In this document: positions 5,345 to 18,679 of the stretch, piece by piece | Layout of the letters: each line of letters starts with the position of its first letter | Position numbering within the stretch: the stretch's first letter is position 1 | From: Fidelibacterota bacterium | GTDB lineage: Bacteria; Fidelibacterota; Fidelibacteria; Fidelibacterales; Fidelibacteraceae | Reading direction: 5' to 3' | DNA length: 24,000 bases | Assembly (NCBI GenBank): GCA_028699915.1 | Contig: JAQVTR010000023.1 | Span: forward strand, 2,456 to 26,455 | The notes under the pieces: model-generated | Seen by the model: only the letters and a program-made list of their open reading frames with translations | What the model was told of the DNA's origin: nothing | The model's database searches: none | Program-made: the position numbers and the translations under genes

Positions 5345-5633
5345 TGCCTGTCCGCCGAAGTCCCGACGAAGGCGGGTTGATTTGTTGATATTTGTTTTGA
5401 TTCAACATTTAAGACTCAAAATTCAAGGTAATTCCGCTGACCAGGCTTCCCAGGTTCCCAAGTTCCCAACTTCCGGCTTCTGCCTGCGCGCCGCAGTCCC
5501 GACGAAGGCGGGTTGATTTGTTGATATTCGTTTTGATTTAACATTCAAGATTCAAAATTCAAGGTAATTCCGCTGACCAGGCTTCCCAGCTTCCCAGGTT
5601 CCCAACTTCCGGCTTCTGCCTGCGCGCCGCCGT
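5345..5633. repeat. 136-bp tandem direct repeat, 2.1 copies, with internal 7-8-nt micro-repeats
   Basis: Copy A (5345-5480) and copy B (5481-5616) align without indels and differ by 9 substitutions in my manual alignment. A third partial copy at 5617-5633 matches 16/17. Each unit has a GC-rich head (TGCCTGCGCGCCGCAGTCCCGACGAAGGCGGG), 3x TTGAT(T/A), 3x ATTCAA(G/A), then CTTCCCAG/GTTCCCAA/CTTCCGGC 8-mers. Confidence 0.95.
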
Positions 5634-7253: not shown

Positions 7254-7633
7254 AAAGTCGGCGAGATGACCGCTCCATCCCGACCCCGAATTCCGGGGCG
7301 GGACCGGGGAGGAAAGTCCGAACTCCGCAGAGCAGGATGCCCCGTAACACAGGGAGCCCGTGAGGGCTGGATAGCGCAACAGAAAGCAAACGTCCCCGAT
7401 TCGTCGGGGTCACGGTGAAACGGCGAGGTAAGAGCTCACCAGTTCCGGCGGCAACGCCGGAAGCTCGGCAAGCCCCATCCGGAGCAACACAAATCGGAAA
7501 GTATGCCCTGCTCGGGTTAACGCTTTCCTGGTCGTGGCTGGACCGGCCCGGAAACGGACCGGCAAGATAAATGGTCATCGTCCTTCCGCCATTTGGCGGA
7601 CAGGGCAACAGAATTCGGCTTATGACCGGCTTT
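7254..7633 (+). ncRNA. rnpB: RNase P RNA, bacterial type A
   Basis: P1 pairing AAAGTCGG (7254-7261) with CCGGCTTT (7626-7633). Universal P4 strands GAGGAAAGTCCG (7309-7320) and ACAGAATTCGGCTTAT (7608-7623). Also CAACAGAAAGCAAAC, GGTGAAACGG, GGTAAGAGCTCACCAG and CAAGATAAATG, all collinear with E. coli M1 RNA. Confidence 0.95.
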
Positions 7634-7670
7634 AAGCTTTTTGACCTTTCAATGCGAAATGAGCATAAGT

Positions 7671-12226: not shown

Positions 12227-13510
12227 ATGTCCCCGGGTTTAAGCATTATCATTTTTATCGGCCTTTTGGTACTTTCCGGAATTTTTTCCGGTTCCGAAAC
12301 CGCGCTGTTCGGCGCCAGAAAGGACGTCCTGCGAAATATGAAAAGCAAGGGTGCCAAACGCACCCTGAAACTGCTTGGCAAGCCGCAAAAATTGCTGATC
12401 AGTATTCTGGTCGGTAACACCCTCGTCAATATCGCACTTACCGTGCTCAGCACCGTAATGGTCTACCGGCTTTCCCGGGAGTACGGAATGCATCACCTCG
12501 TGACGGCATTTCTGGAAATTGTGCTTGTCACGCTGCTGGTGCTGGTCTTTGGCGAGATCATTCCCAAGACCATTTCGCTGCACAATGCCGAAAAGACAGG
12601 TGTTCGGATGAGCATGCTGATCGCTATATTTTACACTGTATTTTTCCCGCTGACCATTGTGCTGTACCTGATCAGCCGTATTGCCGAAAAAGCGCTGCGC
12701 ATCAAACAGGACAGCCTGATCCGTAACGAGGATGACATTAAAACCCTGGTACAGATTGGCGAGGAACGCGGAGAATTCCAGGAAAAAGAAATCGAAATGA
12801 TCACTTCACTGCTGGAATCCACCGAAACCTGCGTACGCGAGATCATGATTCCGCGGCCGGACATGGTGGCTGTGGACGCCGATCGCCCGCTGGAAGATAT
12901 TTTTAATTTTGTCAGCAACCAGCGCTTTGCGCGTTTTCCCGTTTACCGGAACGACCTTGACAACATCATTGGATTTATATCCGAAAAGGATATTCTTGGA
13001 TATCTGGACGGAAAGGAGAAGGTTACGATCGAAAAGCTCATTCGTCCGCCCTTATTTCTCCCGGAACAGTGCTCCGTTTCCAGGGCGATCACGGTTTTTC
13101 AGGAAAAAAAGACCAAGATCGCCATTGTGGTTGATGAATACGGAGGCACCAGCGGACTGGTTAGCCTGGAGGATGCCATTGAAGAGATCGTGGGGGACAT
13201 CCGGGACGAAAACGAGGCCGGCAGCAATATGCTCAAATGGCTGACGCGGAACGAGTGCGCCGTAAACGCTTCCATCAATCTGGACGAACTCGAAGAGATC
13301 CTGGATATCCGTTTTCCGGAAGAGCGGGCTTACGACACACTTGGGGGTTTTGTGATGGATCGTCTGGGCCGCATTCCGGGAAGGCATGACGCTTTCCGCT
13401 ATCAAAACCATATTTTTATCGTCGATGAGATGGAGCATAAACGCATACAGCGTCTCCGTATCATCCGTGCCCACCATAAAGCACCGGATTTTAATGAAAA
13501 GTCTCGATGA
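12227..13510 (+). CDS. CNNM/DUF21 - CBS pair - CorC_HlyC domain protein (CorC/TlyC-type, hemolysin-family annotation)
   Basis: 427 aa with four N-terminal TM helices carrying GSETALF and GEIIPK motifs, a CBS pair (IMIPRPDMV..., FPVYRNDLDNIIGF...), and a C-terminal transporter-associated domain (YDTLGGFVMDRLGRIP). Confidence 0.85.
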   Translation: MSPGLSIIIFIGLLVLSGIFSGSETALFGARKDVLRNMKSKGAKRTLKLLGKPQKLLISILVGNTLVNIALTVLSTVMVYRLSREYGMHHLVTAFLEIVLVTLLVLVFGEIIPKTISLHNAEKTGVRMSMLIAIFYTVFFPLTIVLYLISRIAEKALRIKQDSLIRNEDDIKTLVQIGEERGEFQEKEIEMITSLLESTETCVREIMIPRPDMVAVDADRPLEDIFNFVSNQRFARFPVYRNDLDNIIGFISEKDILGYLDGKEKVTIEKLIRPPLFLPEQCSVSRAITVFQEKKTKIAIVVDEYGGTSGLVSLEDAIEEIVGDIRDENEAGSNMLKWLTRNECAVNASINLDELEEILDIRFPEERAYDTLGGFVMDRLGRIPGRHDAFRYQNHIFIVDEMEHKRIQRLRIIRAHHKAPDFNEKSR

Positions 13511-14261
13511 ACTCATCGCCATTGTTCGCATTTTGCGCTCTCCGGAAGGTTGTCCCTGGGACCGGGAGCAGAATTCCCGTTCGCTGTTGCCGTATTTTCT
13601 GGAAGAAGTTCATGAAACCATCGATGCCGTCAACGCGAAAAATTACGAACAATTGAGAAAGGAACTGGGGGATGTGCTCCTGCATGTGGTGTTTCAGATA
13701 CTGATCGCGGAGGAGGAGGGACAGTTTGGTTTTGAAGAGGTGTTTGAGGGAATCAATGCAAAAATGCGCCGCAGGCATCCGCATGTTTTTCAAAAAGACC
13801 GCGAATACAGCAAGGAAGAAGTAAACCGGAACTGGGAGCGGGACAAGCGCAAAGATCCCGGTGAGCACCTGCTGGACGGCATTCCGCGCGCTTTGCCGGA
13901 ATTGCACCGTTCCTTCCGCATGCAGCAAAAAGCCGCGGCCGTGGGTTTTGACTGGGATGATGTCTCGGAGGTCTGGAAGAAGCTGGACGAAGAGCTAGAG
14001 GAATTTCGCGAGGCAAAAACGGCGGGGGACAGAGCGGCCATGGAAAATGAAATGGGGGATATTTTGTTCGCACTGGTCAATCTCAGTCGTTTTTACGGTC
14101 TGCATCCCGAACAGGCGCTTCAGCGGAGCAATGATAAATTTTACCGTCGTTTTACCGCCATAGAGGATCATTATAAGAAAAAGGGCGCTTCCATAAAAGA
14201 TGCAGGTCTTCAGGAGCTGGACCGGCTTTGGGAAGAGATAAAAAAGGAAGAATTCCGATAA
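13494..14261 (+). CDS. mazG: Nucleoside triphosphate pyrophosphohydrolase MazG
   Basis: 256 aa from the internal ATG at 13494 (MKSLDELIAIVRILRSPEGCPWDREQ...). Both MazG half-domains are present (EE.HE...ELGDVLLHVVF and EELEEFREA...EMGDILFALVNLSRF). The ORF-track start at 13386 would add 36 codons that overlap the end of the preceding gene. Confidence 0.9.
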   Translation: MKSLDELIAIVRILRSPEGCPWDREQNSRSLLPYFLEEVHETIDAVNAKNYEQLRKELGDVLLHVVFQILIAEEEGQFGFEEVFEGINAKMRRRHPHVFQKDREYSKEEVNRNWERDKRKDPGEHLLDGIPRALPELHRSFRMQQKAAAVGFDWDDVSEVWKKLDEELEEFREAKTAGDRAAMENEMGDILFALVNLSRFYGLHPEQALQRSNDKFYRRFTAIEDHYKKKGASIKDAGLQELDRLWEEIKKEEFR

Positions 14262-14273
14262 GCCGGGGGCGGT

Positions 14274-14291
14274 CTTCGGGGCTTCCCGAAG
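14274..14291 (+). terminator. Stem-loop after mazG (CTTCGGG-GCTT-CCCGAAG), no U tract
   Basis: A 7-bp perfect stem with a tetraloop, 13 nt after the mazG stop. It lacks a T run, so it may be a stabiliser or a Rho-dependent site rather than an intrinsic terminator. Confidence 0.3.
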
Positions 14292-14312
14292 TCAATCCGA
14301 CCGGAGATTGGA

Positions 14313-14396
14313 TTGACTCAAATAAATTGACTCAAATAAATTGACTCAAAATATTTGACTCAAATAATTTGCCCCAAACAGATTGCCTCATAAAAA
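14313..14396. repeat. 6 x 14-bp tandem array, unit TTGACTCAAAtaaa decaying to TTGCCCCAAAcaga / TTGCCTCATAaaaa
   Basis: Units start at 14313, 14327, 14341, 14355, 14369 and 14383. The core TTGACTCAA is a 9-bp palindrome around its central base. The array is preceded by the hairpin GTCAATCC (14291-14298) / GGATTGAC (14310-14317). Confidence 0.95.
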
Positions 14397-14408
14397 ATAC
14401 GCATTTAT

Positions 14409-14957
14409 TTATTCTTCATAATGATAAGTAAAAGCTTCCACGTATTCCCTGTATTTCTGTGAGTTCGGAAAACAATTCTGACGAATATCAGGTAAAAATA
14501 ATTTACTTTTACGTGCATTGATCCACTCCCGGTAATTTGAGTAAGGCCAGTCTTCCGGTTTTTCAGCCAGGTTTGCGTACACCGGATTCATGTGGATGTA
14601 CTTGCTGAGCTTGATCATATATGTTTTTGTTTCCACGACGGTATGCTGCAGTGGTGACCTGAAAATAGGACCTTTCCGATCGTGTTGTTTGTTGAAATAC
14701 CTCGCATAAGAAATGAAGGTGTAATTAAACAAGCGGTAAATCTTTATGTCACTATCTTGTCTGATCAAAAAATGGTAATGATTGGGCATCAGACAATAGC
14801 TGATAATACCCGCAGGAATTTTATTGATTCGATCCGTGAAAATTTGCAGGAAATAATTGTAATCCTCATCATCGTAAAATAGTTTCAGATCATCAATTGC
14901 ATGATTGAAAACATGGAAAACCCTTCCTGTTGTAAAATCATCCTGTGAACATCGCAT
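14409..14957 (-). CDS. Y1 HUH transposase-fold protein (IS200/IS605 TnpA / REP-associated tyrosine transposase, RAYT-like)
   Basis: 182 aa from the ATG (complement of 14955-14957), which sits 6 nt after AAGGAGG. It has the HUH motif in CLMPNHYHFLI and the catalytic-Tyr helix in KYIHMNPV. Hand GC counts on six 60-nt lines of the gene gave 30-50 %, mostly 30-43 %, against about 55 % in a mazG line. Confidence 0.85.
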   Translation of the reverse strand: MRCSQDDFTTGRVFHVFNHAIDDLKLFYDDEDYNYFLQIFTDRINKIPAGIISYCLMPNHYHFLIRQDSDIKIYRLFNYTFISYARYFNKQHDRKGPIFRSPLQHTVVETKTYMIKLSKYIHMNPVYANLAEKPEDWPYSNYREWINARKSKLFLPDIRQNCFPNSQKYREYVEAFTYHYEE

Positions 14958-15054
14958 CTTCGTCCTCCTTAATTTTATTTTATACGGTAGTAATTTAATA
15001 TAAAAAATCATTCAGCCTGTGCCGGTAAATAAAAAGTGTGATGAAGGTTATAAA

Positions 15055-15110
15055 TTTGAGTCAAAATATTTGACTCAAAACATTTGCCCCAAAACATTTG
15101 CCCCAAAACA
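15055..15110. repeat. 4 x 14-bp array of the same family (TTTGAGTCAAAATA, TTTGACTCAAAACA, 2 x TTTGCCCCAAAACA)
   Basis: Same period, same orientation and same TGACTCA-to-GCCCCAAA gradient as the array at 14313-14396. The first two units form a perfect 11-bp stem with a 3-nt loop (15055-15065 / 15069-15079). Confidence 0.9.
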
Positions 15111-15111
15111 T

Positions 15112-15120
15112 CCCCCCCCC
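15112..15120. repeat. Homopolymeric C9 tract
   Basis: Nine consecutive C, immediately after the repeat array and 9 nt upstream of the -35 hexamer at 15130. Confidence 0.95.
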
Positions 15121-15129
15121 ATTTTTCCC

Positions 15130-15157
15130 TTGACTTCTCACGCGCTTTTCGTATATT
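15130..15157 (+). promoter_or_regulatory. sigma70-like promoter of the DUF134 operon (TTGACT - 16 nt - TATATT)
   Basis: Hexamers at 15130-15135 and 15152-15157 with a hand-counted 16-nt spacer, 33 nt upstream of the ATG at 15190. Confidence 0.55.
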
Positions 15158-15180
15158 ATTATTGGCATATGCCAATAATA
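15157..15180. promoter_or_regulatory. 24-bp perfect palindrome TATTATTGGCATATGCCAATAATA (putative operator)
   Basis: All 12 base pairs of symmetry were checked individually. It spans from the last base of the -10 hexamer to the first base of the AGGAG SD. Confidence 0.6.
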
Positions 15181-15189
15181 GGAGCAAGA

Positions 15190-15609
15190 ATGCCCAGACC
15201 GCCAAAAACACGATGGATATACGGCGACTTCGAAGCGGAGTATTTCAAGCCGCGCGGCCGCAGAATGAGCGAAATAGACGAGATCAGCCTGGAAGCCGAT
15301 GAACTCGAAGCACTGCGGCTTGCGGACCTGGAAGAATTGTATCAGAACGACGCCGCCGAAAAAATGGGTGTTTCCCGGCAGACCTTTGGAAATATCCTGA
15401 AACATGCGCACCAAAAAATTGCCGATGCGCTGATCCATGGGAAAGCCATCCGCATGTTCCCGCCCTCCGGCGGACAACAACACTGCCATCGCTGCGGACA
15501 ACCCTGGTCGGAAACCATCCAGGGACCGGCAGCCGATGAATGTCCCGAATGCGCAAGGGATCGGCACGGGTATGGTCACGGGCACGGGCGGGGCAAACGA
15601 ATAAAATAA
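15190..15609 (+). CDS. DUF134 (UPF0251) family putative DNA-binding protein with C-terminal CxxC...CxxC zinc ribbon and His/Gly tail
   Basis: 139 aa from the ATG at 15190 (AGGAG 5 nt upstream). It has the family-typical N-terminus MPRPPKTRW...FKPRG and a sigma-r4-like HTH (LEALRLADLEELYQNDAAEKMGVSRQTFGNILKHAHQKIADAL). The tail is HCHRCGQPW-x15-CPECARDRHGYGHGHGRGKRIK. Confidence 0.8.
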   Translation: MPRPPKTRWIYGDFEAEYFKPRGRRMSEIDEISLEADELEALRLADLEELYQNDAAEKMGVSRQTFGNILKHAHQKIADALIHGKAIRMFPPSGGQQHCHRCGQPWSETIQGPAADECPECARDRHGYGHGHGRGKRIK

Positions 15610-18607: not shown

Positions 18608-18679
18608 TATCCCCTAGGGGATTCGAACCCCTGTTGCAGGAATGAAAATCCTGAGTCCTGACCACTGAACGAAGGGGAC
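18608..18679 (-). tRNA. tRNA-Glu (anticodon UUC)
   Basis: The reverse complement GTCCCCTTCGTTCAGTGGTCAGGACTCAGGATTTTCATTCCTGCAACAGGGGTTCGAATCCCCTAGGGGATA folds as a cloverleaf: a 7-bp acceptor stem (G1.U72 wobble), D stem GTTC/GGAC, anticodon stem CAGGA/TCCTG with loop TTTTCAT (anticodon TTC), and T arm AGGGG-TTCGAAT-CCCCT. It closely resembles E. coli tRNA-Glu. CCA is not encoded. Confidence 0.93.

Follow-up and report, generated by a model that had tools for sequence, protein, structure and literature searches.

The DNA analysed here is a stretch of 24,000 nucleotides (the window) from a Fidelibacterota bacterium (GenBank assembly GCA_028699915.1, contig JAQVTR010000023.1, positions 2,456 to 26,455), in which a small gene of the Y1/HUH tyrosine transposase type, similar to the REP-associated tyrosine transposases (RAYT) of repetitive extragenic palindromic (REP) sequences, is embedded in arrays of a short palindromic repeat. 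The gene occupies positions 14409-14957 on the minus strand and encodes a protein of 182 aa, which was recognised by Pfam, NCBIfam, alignment and a fold model. It is placed between mazG (13494-14261, plus strand) on one side and, on the other side, an operon for DUF134, DUF5320 and a MinD-type Fe-S ATPase that begins at 15190. The overall GC content of the gene is 0.37; along its length the value stays between 0.34 and 0.40, against about 0.50-0.58 on either side, which agrees with the low-GC HUH/Y1 gene described in the first-pass annotation. Both sides of the gene carry 14-bp units with the consensus AATTGACTCAAATA, and the counts and positions read earlier from the letters alone, six units on the left and four on the right, were recovered. 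The left array (14313-14396, plus strand, 3' of the gene in its own orientation) consists of four copies of TTGACTCAAA, one of TTGCCCCAAA and one degenerate unit TTGCCTCAT, and the right array (15055-15110, plus strand) of TTGAGTCAAA, TTGACTCAAA and two copies of TTGCCCCAAA. Tandem Repeats Finder reported them with a period of 14, as 5.6 copies at 14312-14390 and 4.1 copies at 15054-15111, and the gradient from TTGACTCAAA to TTGCCCCAAA noticed earlier is present on both sides. In the 24-kb window, the motif TTGASTCAAA has nine matches on the two strands against 0.11 expected, all of them (9/9) inside the two arrays, and the 7-mer TGASTCA is absent from the window outside these arrays.

The arrays are accompanied by hairpins. 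The first two units of the right array form a perfect 11-bp stem (15055-15065 with 15069-15079) around a 3-nt loop, in which the centre of the first unit is flipped. This hairpin (15055-15079) had been drawn in the first-pass annotation; it is the minimum-free-energy fold, with z = -5.0 against shuffles. On the left side, a GC-rich hairpin, CTTCGGG-GCTT-CCCGAAG, folds in DNA at 14274-14291 (plus strand), just past the stop codon of mazG. It is followed at 14290-14318 (plus strand, by fold and alignment) by the head hairpin AGTCAATCC-loop-GGATTGACT, placed earlier at 14291-14317, which has a stem of 9-10 bp, a right arm that enters the first unit, and GAGTC/GACTC-type half sites as its feet. 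Both left hairpins have z of about -3 to -4 against shuffled controls. In an alignment of 16 heads, the hairpin at 14274-14291 aligns as a divergent version of the first of the two hairpins in the dispersed elements described below (GGGAAGACCTTAGGGGCTTCCC at other loci), and hairpins of the 14290-14318 type were also found at at least six loci of the window's species and at least eight of its sister species. Positions 14274-14396 of the window make up one head-plus-array element, which adjoins the mazG 3' end and has the Y1 gene within its array.

The 182-aa protein matched Y1_Tnp of Pfam with 30.5 bits (cutoff 23). The family model REP_Tyr_transpos (NF047646) was the sole NCBIfam match in all 29 aligned family members (29/29), and none of the 29 matched the IS200 models of NCBIfam. 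In the alignment of 29 homologues, H60 and H62 of the NHYH motif, Y120 of YIHMNP, N124 and P125 are invariant, and a WPYS-type motif is invariant or nearly so; from these conserved residues the gene is predicted to be catalytically intact. The tyrosine motif is Y---NP, that of class 2, and not the Y---Q of IS200 (PMC6006769). When a profile of the family was compared with the PDB, TnpA_REP (4ER8) was matched at E 3.9e-7 and the IS200-type structure 2F4F at E 0.24. A single-sequence phmmer search reached 4ER8 at E 0.18 only, and the signal emerged with the family profile and the fold search. The AlphaFold2 (AF2) model (pLDDT 92.7) had 4ER8 as its top PDB fold match (E 6.9e-9, TM 0.64/0.70), against E of about 1e-5 and TM of about 0.48 for the TnpA proteins of IS608, ISDra2 and IS200. 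Judged by profile and modelled fold, the enzyme is predicted to belong to the TnpA_REP (RAYT) type rather than to IS200 TnpA. The family of about 190 aa to which it belongs has 2,747 clusters of 50% identity at E <= 1e-30.

For the comparison between genomes, the window's species is called W, its sister species, represented by the metagenome-assembled genome (MAG) STD1_137, is called A, and a more distant species is called C; the DNA identity is 78-80% for W and A and about 72-73% for W and C. The identical protein was found on 13 public contigs from many samples, including the Candidatus Neomarinimicrobiota MAG GCA_028690915.1, and in 13/13 of them the gene has the mazG/DUF134 context. Species C has an orthologue, 71% identical, which also stands between mazG and DUF134 and is accompanied by the same arrays and hairpin. 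Between W and C, the Y1 gene has an amino acid identity of 0.71, dS of 1.56 and dN/dS of 0.107, and five neighbour genes have values of 0.59-0.80, 1.2-2.4 and 0.10-0.19, respectively; the divergence of the Y1 gene and the selection on it are indistinguishable from those of the five neighbours, and the selection is purifying. The gene is AT-rich in both species (GC 0.37 in W, 14409-14957, and 0.35 in C, L010 6001-6552), about 0.15 below its neighbours. The low GC was considered as a mark of recent acquisition and this was rejected, since the orthologue in C is equally AT-rich despite dS >1.5; because the bias was kept in two species at this distance, it is an old and maintained trait. Taken together, the sequences suggest a gene resident at the mazG/DUF134 junction since before the split of W and C, single-locus across the 13 contigs and inherited vertically in a host-like manner.

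The same junction looks different in species A. There (L054), a head and three units abut the DUF134 promoter as one uninterrupted array without a gene, and 14350-15113 of the window (764 bp, with the Y1 gene) corresponds to 14 bp. One of the three readings offered in the first-pass annotation was that an ordinary IS200-like tnpA element, of about 0.8 kb, had been inserted by chance into a pre-existing array upstream of the DUF134 operon, the units being its split target. The uninterrupted array in the sister species does exist, the GC of the gene is far under that of its surroundings and the size of the element is like that of IS200, all of which would agree with such an insertion. However, the gene is already in place at this junction in C, where its divergence and dN/dS are neighbour-like and its GC is equally low; an insertion would therefore have to be older than the split of the two species, which makes the empty site a loss. 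It is also against this explanation that only one locus was found in 13 contigs, that homologues at unrelated loci are bracketed by cognate palindromes as well (see below), that the protein has the class 2 motif, and that its best structure and profile match is TnpA_REP. For these reasons we regard a chance insertion as very unlikely. The empty site of A is best read from these alignments as a deletion by recombination between the direct arrays and not as an insertion in W, because the more distant C holds the gene there and the divergence of the gene matches that of its neighbours. The flanking arrays are direct repeats and recombination between them can therefore delete the gene, as the sister species shows. 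The tie of the array to the DUF134 operon, which was part of the same earlier reading, did not stand, as the arrays occur elsewhere and are not specific to this operon.

In a scan of a genome collection with two adjacent units, at least 16 tiles on 12 contigs of the Neomarinimicrobiota MAG STD1_137 (species A) were among the 100 matches listed, most of which were single matches in other phyla and none of which came from W. A metagenome scan with the 25-mer of two units returned 24 stretches, all from samples of landfill type in which the Y1 gene of the window is present as well. These stretches come from species A (>99% identity to STD1_137) and from a second species of 75-83% (mostly 78-80%) identity to A, a distance that equals that between the window and A. 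In one stretch of the second species (L129), the adjacent DUF4837 protein (P0121) is identical to that on JAQVAI010000140 of MAG GCA_028690915.1, which carries the Y1 locus, and P0121 was also found in four other assemblies holding Y1 contigs. By distinct flanks, at least 11 intergenic loci were assigned to W. This number is a lower bound because the metagenome scan missed the window's own locus, which was not returned although the 25-mer is present in JGI contigs such as Ga0172377_10000107 (L004). The arrays are intergenic throughout, many of them between convergent genes, and the head usually lies 3' of a co-oriented gene. Around the seeded matches there was about one further array per 40-70 kb, which suggests, as a rough extrapolation, tens of loci per genome.

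The dispersed element, as seen in the alignment of 16 copies, begins with a head of about 62 nt made of the GC hairpin (GGGAAGACCTTAGGGGCTTCCC) and a second hairpin, GAGTCAATCC-loop-GGATTGACTC, and continues with n units of AATTGACTCAAATA, where n is 2 to 10 or more; the arrays end past TTGACTCAA(A/T), and the DNA upstream of the head is loosely purine-rich. A CRISPR-like or iteron/origin identity was considered for these arrays and rejected, since the arrays lack spacers and are scattered over the genome at the 3' ends of genes. No Y1 gene was detected within 8 kb of the dispersed arrays by tblastn and by profile hidden Markov model (HMM) search of six-frame open reading frames (ORFs), except in L100, which is an unrelated canonical GTAG REPtron (a RAYT gene with its REPs), and in L050, which has a long Y1 gene and comes from another phylum. 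One 14-bp array of W was found to contain an IS30-type transposase gene (320 aa, HTH_38 and rve domains) with inverted ends and with units on both sides (L144 1-1316, Ga0172382_10281950, the same locus as L140). REPs of other bacteria are known as targets of insertion sequences (IS).

The number of units varies. The right array has seven units in eight other assemblies of the same species against four in the window (a 42-bp difference), the left array has one unit fewer in contig L009, and the DUF4837 locus has 6, 7 or 10 units depending on the assembly, many contigs ending within the array. At orthologous loci of W and A the numbers were 9 vs 3, 9 vs 2 and 4 vs 5, among others. At orthologous sites, the type of head goes with the species, GAGTC...GACTC being found in A and C and CGTC...GACG(AC), at five or more loci, in W. 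In W the change is on both arms and the pairing of the stem is preserved. The W head therefore spread by copying, conversion or replacement and not by independent point mutation.

These observations also bear on a second explanation, according to which the units are double-stranded operators or iterons for a dimeric protein, either a Y1 protein turned regulator or nucleoid protein or some other factor. Slippage alone would alter their number, and the arrays would serve transcription or chromosome organisation and not be mobilised DNA. Like a binding site for a dimer, each unit is an almost perfect palindrome of 13 bp, the centre of which does not vary, and the periodicity (14 or 24 bp) is strict. 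Furthermore, most sites are orthologous at about 20% divergence, hence stable and not mobile, heads stand just 3' of co-oriented genes, where a terminator or mRNA-stabilising role is plausible, and one array abuts the DUF134 promoter. On the other hand, the invariance of the HUH and Tyr residues would argue for retained nuclease/ligase chemistry, the compensatory, species-wide changes of the head keep the hairpin and point to a single-strand structure, and homogenisation of the head at at least five separate loci needs copying or conversion, not slippage. The DUF134 operon also has its own, different conserved palindrome. The promoter of this operon has its -35 hexamer TTGACT at 15130-15135 and its -10 hexamer TATATT at 15152-15157, and a perfect 24-bp palindrome, TATTATTGGCATATGCCAATAATA, at 15157-15180 overlaps the -10 region and the ribosome-binding site (RBS). 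The core of the palindrome, TTGGCATATGCCAA, is retained in species A, and species C has TTGGCATATGCTAA, with one change. The palindrome probably serves as an operator of this operon and is not related to the 14-bp units. On the whole, we consider the operator or iteron explanation unlikely. The proposal in the first-pass annotation that the repeats are recruited regulatory sites of DUF134 fared no better, since arrays accompany the Y1 gene at unrelated loci as well and are mostly at gene 3' ends. The -35 hexamer had been taken as identical to the start of the unit; its derivation from the repeat was rejected, as species A has TTGATT there and the operon has an operator of its own. The sequence TTGACT needs no such origin, being near the consensus for a sigma-70 -35 element. 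A C9 homopolymer (15112-15120, plus strand) separates the right array from this promoter and is 10 long in contig L008; the variation in its length could come from a slippage-prone tract or from sequencing error.

A link between the protein and the palindromes was obtained from the homologues. At nine Y1 loci in five contexts (the window, C and seven further loci), GA(C/G)TC-centred palindromes were found on both sides of the gene in 9/9. The contexts are mazG-DUF134, a Ca/Na-exchanger neighbour, RadA-PFOR, OsmC-MFS and DUF2461. Beside the Ca/Na-exchanger gene, P0003 has ATTG(G/A)GTCAAT units with a period of 13-14 bp; P0004 (DUF2461 context) and P0012 (RadA-PFOR) have ATTGA(C/G)TCAAT with a period of 24 bp, and P0007 and P0030 (both OsmC-MFS) have TTCGA(C/G)TCGAA, again with a period of 24 bp. 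The two other RadA-PFOR loci have four isolated 19-bp palindromes AAAACTTGA(G/C)TCAAGTTTT (P0008) and AACCGA(C/G)TCGGTT (P0041). The spacing tracks the protein clade, the 14-bp clade being P0001, P0002 and P0003 (70-72% identical) and the 24-bp clade P0004, P0007, P0012 and P0030 (62-74%); in the latter, neighbouring units alternate in polarity. P0008 and P0030 have different palindromes, and their clusters share a longest contig of 335,311 bp and both occur in sample 3300042281, so that the two genes apparently come from one genome. A pattern of one enzyme and one repeat is a hallmark of the REPtron (PMC6006769; PMC2817692). No motif of the GA(C/G)TC type was found elsewhere in the 8-24 kb around the Y1 genes examined. 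In the window, the 5' region of the gene (14958-15054, minus strand) has an RBS, AGGAGG, and a motif CCTTCATCACACTTTTT (15032-15048; AAAAAGTGTGATGAAGG on the plus strand) that recurs upstream of homologues, with GTCACAC/CACATCACA-like motifs before the Y1 gene in L010, L118, L119, L122 and L161 and another copy in L104.

It could still be argued that the arrays are a generic AT-rich minisatellite produced by slippage and that the Y1 gene is nearby by coincidence, and TTGACTCAA arrays with a period of 14 bp do occur in cyanobacteria and other phyla without a Y1 gene within 8 kb. This view has to contend with the palindromes on both sides of every Y1 gene compared in the five contexts, with clade-specific variants that are kept apart even within what is apparently one genome, with the absence of the motif from the surrounding DNA, and with an unrelated long Y1 gene of another phylum that is followed by TTGAGTCAA units at a period of 14 bp. 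We consider coincidence to be highly improbable. The last-mentioned gene is on a contig labelled as an Akkermansia MAG (L050 1-1040), where a long Y1_Tnp ORF (MANHFHVLIR, YIDLNP) is followed, 55 nt downstream, by 2.5 copies of ATGGGGTTGAGTCA with a period of 14 bp. Arrays of the TTGACTCAA type with the same period and without a Y1 gene in the 8-kb tile were seen in L061 (700-830), L042 (1484-1540), L020, L021, L024 and others, from an unclassified MAG (9 or more units of TTGACTCAATCTCG) and several cyanobacteria (2-5 units), the latter being over-represented among the listed matches of the scan. In L104 (1150-1300, Neomarinimicrobiota MAG ZodW_Metabat.180), three units with a period of 14, and without 24-bp-like spacing, stand by a GTCACACTTTTT motif, which normally separates the Y1 start codon from the array upstream of it. 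The Y1 gene itself is missing there, and the site may be a further scar of a deletion.

The reading that we favour, and consider probable, is that the window holds a REPtron-like locus, in which a domesticated Y1/HUH enzyme, of the TnpA_REP (RAYT) type and apparently encoded by one gene copy, is surrounded by the repeats that are cognate to it. These repeats are short palindromes centred on GA(C/G)TC, which in the window's lineage are repeated head to tail every 14 bp. The first-pass annotation had listed a REP-RAYT pair with a short tandem repeat among its possibilities, and the single locus, the likeness to TnpA_REP, the dispersed units and the cognate palindromes at homologues are all in its favour. 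By analogy with known enzymes, the protein would bind hairpins in single-stranded DNA, either the head hairpin or a pair of units with opposite centres such as 15055-15079, and the structure recognised would be the inverted GAGTCAA/TTGACTC half sites. Cleavage and ligation by the tyrosine near the hairpin may follow, and such cutting and rejoining may copy or homogenise elements and perhaps resize arrays in 14-nt steps; units could be gained and lost by the chemistry of the enzyme or by plain replication slippage. IS608 TnpA acts in a similar way on subterminal hairpins. The TnpA_REP of E. coli binds folded single-stranded REP DNA and cuts and rejoins it nearby (PMC8266576).

Several observations weigh against this reading. 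The score of the protein for REP_Tyr_transpos, 56.6 bits, is under the equivalog cutoff of 80, and its motifs NHYH, F-R/Q and YIH[LM]NP resemble those of subclass 2.1, which was reported to lack REPs (PMC6006769). Classical features of the REPtron are missing or only partly seen here: there is no 20-50-nt REP with a GT[AG]G foot, the unit being 14 bp long and the head hairpin, of about 29 nt, having a GAGTC foot (CGTC in the derived W-type head), and the inverted orientation of flanking REPs is seen in one pair of units only (15055-15079), the units around the gene being mostly direct. Only one dispersed locus is directly tied to the window's MAG, the remaining W loci being assigned by sample co-occurrence, shared head type and about 78-80% identity to A. 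The copy number is modest, tens and not hundreds. The head beside the Y1 gene in W is of the ancestral type and is not the variant that spread. In addition, six of the at least 11 W loci have array-bearing orthologous sites in A, at about 20% DNA divergence; this implies that insertion at new sites is rare or does not occur, and the loci compared did not reveal any recent transposition. The perfect-unit counts come from short-read assemblies and should be taken with caution, as they may mislead. A bolder version of the mechanism, in which the Y1 enzyme writes and erases 14-nt units by iterative cleavage and ligation at GA(C/G)TC and moves its own cassette between arrays, seems to us quite unlikely. 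If it were true, the arrays would be enzyme-edited tracts of variable length that tune neighbour genes, for example through the spacing of, or readthrough into, the DUF134/Fe-S ATPase operon or the 3'-end stability of upstream genes. For a domesticated HUH transposase, such activity would be new, and it would provide a first functional handle on the very large group-1-like Y1 family of about 190 aa.

Compared with the E. coli REPtron (Nunvar 2010, PMC2817692; Messing 2012, PMC3479197; Corneloup 2021, PMC8266576), the present system likewise has an apparently single-copy, vertically inherited HUH/Y1 gene with Y---NP, 4ER8 as best structure and profile match, and palindromes on both sides of the gene, further copies of which are scattered between genes. 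Clusters or tandem rows of repeats are frequent, as they are in bacterial interspersed mosaic elements (BIMEs); the repeat sequence co-varies with the protein, and the repeats are targets of IS, as with the IS30-type element in one array. The present system differs in that the conserved part is a GA(C/G)TC centre or foot and not a GT[AG]G foot, in that the unit is 14 bp (a 13-bp palindrome) and not 20-50 nt, and in that 2 to 10 or more units are arranged head to tail, mostly in one orientation, in place of alternating REP/iREP pairs. In addition, its dispersed copies have a separate two-hairpin head and probably number tens, not hundreds, and the host phylum is Marinimicrobia, of the FCB group. 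In Pseudomonas REPIN-RAYT systems (PMC3116915; bioRxiv 10.1101/2021.07.10.451892), there is the same long vertical co-inheritance of a single-copy RAYT with short intergenic repeats, which are kept at orthologous sites with a lineage-specific 'master' sequence. Unlike the REPIN, an inverted REP doublet of about 100 bp, it would be a head with a variable tandem array that replicates here, if anything does.

With IS200/IS605 elements (IS200, IS608, ISDra2), the locus has in common the HUH/Y1 fold, the gene length of about 0.5 kb, the placement of the gene between sequences that can form hairpins on one strand, and the lack of classical terminal inverted repeats. It is unlike them in that it is not multi-copy and always has the same flanks, and in that the motif is Y---NP and not Y---Q; the protein has 182 aa against about 150 aa and matches them more weakly than TnpA_REP in profile and fold. 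In contrast to these elements, the gene is fixed at one junction across speciation, and its flanks are independently dispersed repeat arrays. The system most resembles the world of TIRYT/TIRtron (PMC3733652) and of TnpA_Y1 subclass 2.1, which is group 1 of Bertels (PMC6006769; PMC5581495). The likeness to subclass 2.1, which is one of motifs only, lies in NH[YF]H, F-Q-like and not W-Q, and Y[IV]HLNP. The copy number is low in both, and the repeats beside the gene differ from GTAG REPs, may be self-complementary and make up families of only moderate abundance; the 16-mers flanking group 1 genes have a moderate frequency, about 12 per replicon (PMC5581495). The proteins of subclass 2.1 have a median of 238 aa with a C-terminal helix-turn-helix (HTH)-like domain, whereas the family here has 180-195 aa and Pfam detected no HTH domain in the window protein; the terminal inverted repeat (TIR) consensus GGGGWSAS of TIRYT was not seen here. 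No REP-like structures were found for subclass 2.1 (PMC6006769), and dispersed cognate repeats for TIRYT/subclass 2.1 have been reported only rarely (PMC3733652), whereas here periodic palindrome arrays flank every gene examined. No papers linking Marinimicrobia with REP/RAYT systems were found in the literature. What is new here is a system like the known REP/RAYT ones whose short repeat is iterated in tandem and lacks a GTAG foot.

An Rfam scan of the window at gathering thresholds found nothing at the repeats and returned only the RNase P RNA (class A, 7254-7637, plus strand, 246.6 bits) and one tRNA gene (18608-18679, minus strand), both of them ordinary. A 136-bp unit is repeated 2.1 times (94% identity) at 5345-5630, between a gene for a TSCPD-domain protein and a LysE gene; it has inner 8-bp sub-repeats (GCTTCCCA, TTCAA-type) and is without the TTGASTCAA unit.

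RAYT/TnpA_REP genes are present in about a quarter of bacterial species and, to our knowledge, the RAYT substrates known so far are limited to proteobacterial groups with GTAG REPs. For the largest subclass of class 2, no cognate repeat has been recognised (PMC6006769). The present findings offer a substrate hypothesis for the short Y1 family of about 190 aa, namely GA(C/G)TC-centred palindromes with a clade-specific periodicity, and would extend REP/RAYT biology to the FCB group. They also have a practical side, as contigs assembled from short reads are interrupted at the arrays in many places of these genomes. The species compared here, with the gene present, the gene deleted and two variants of the head, may serve as a natural system for asking whether RAYTs maintain their repeats.

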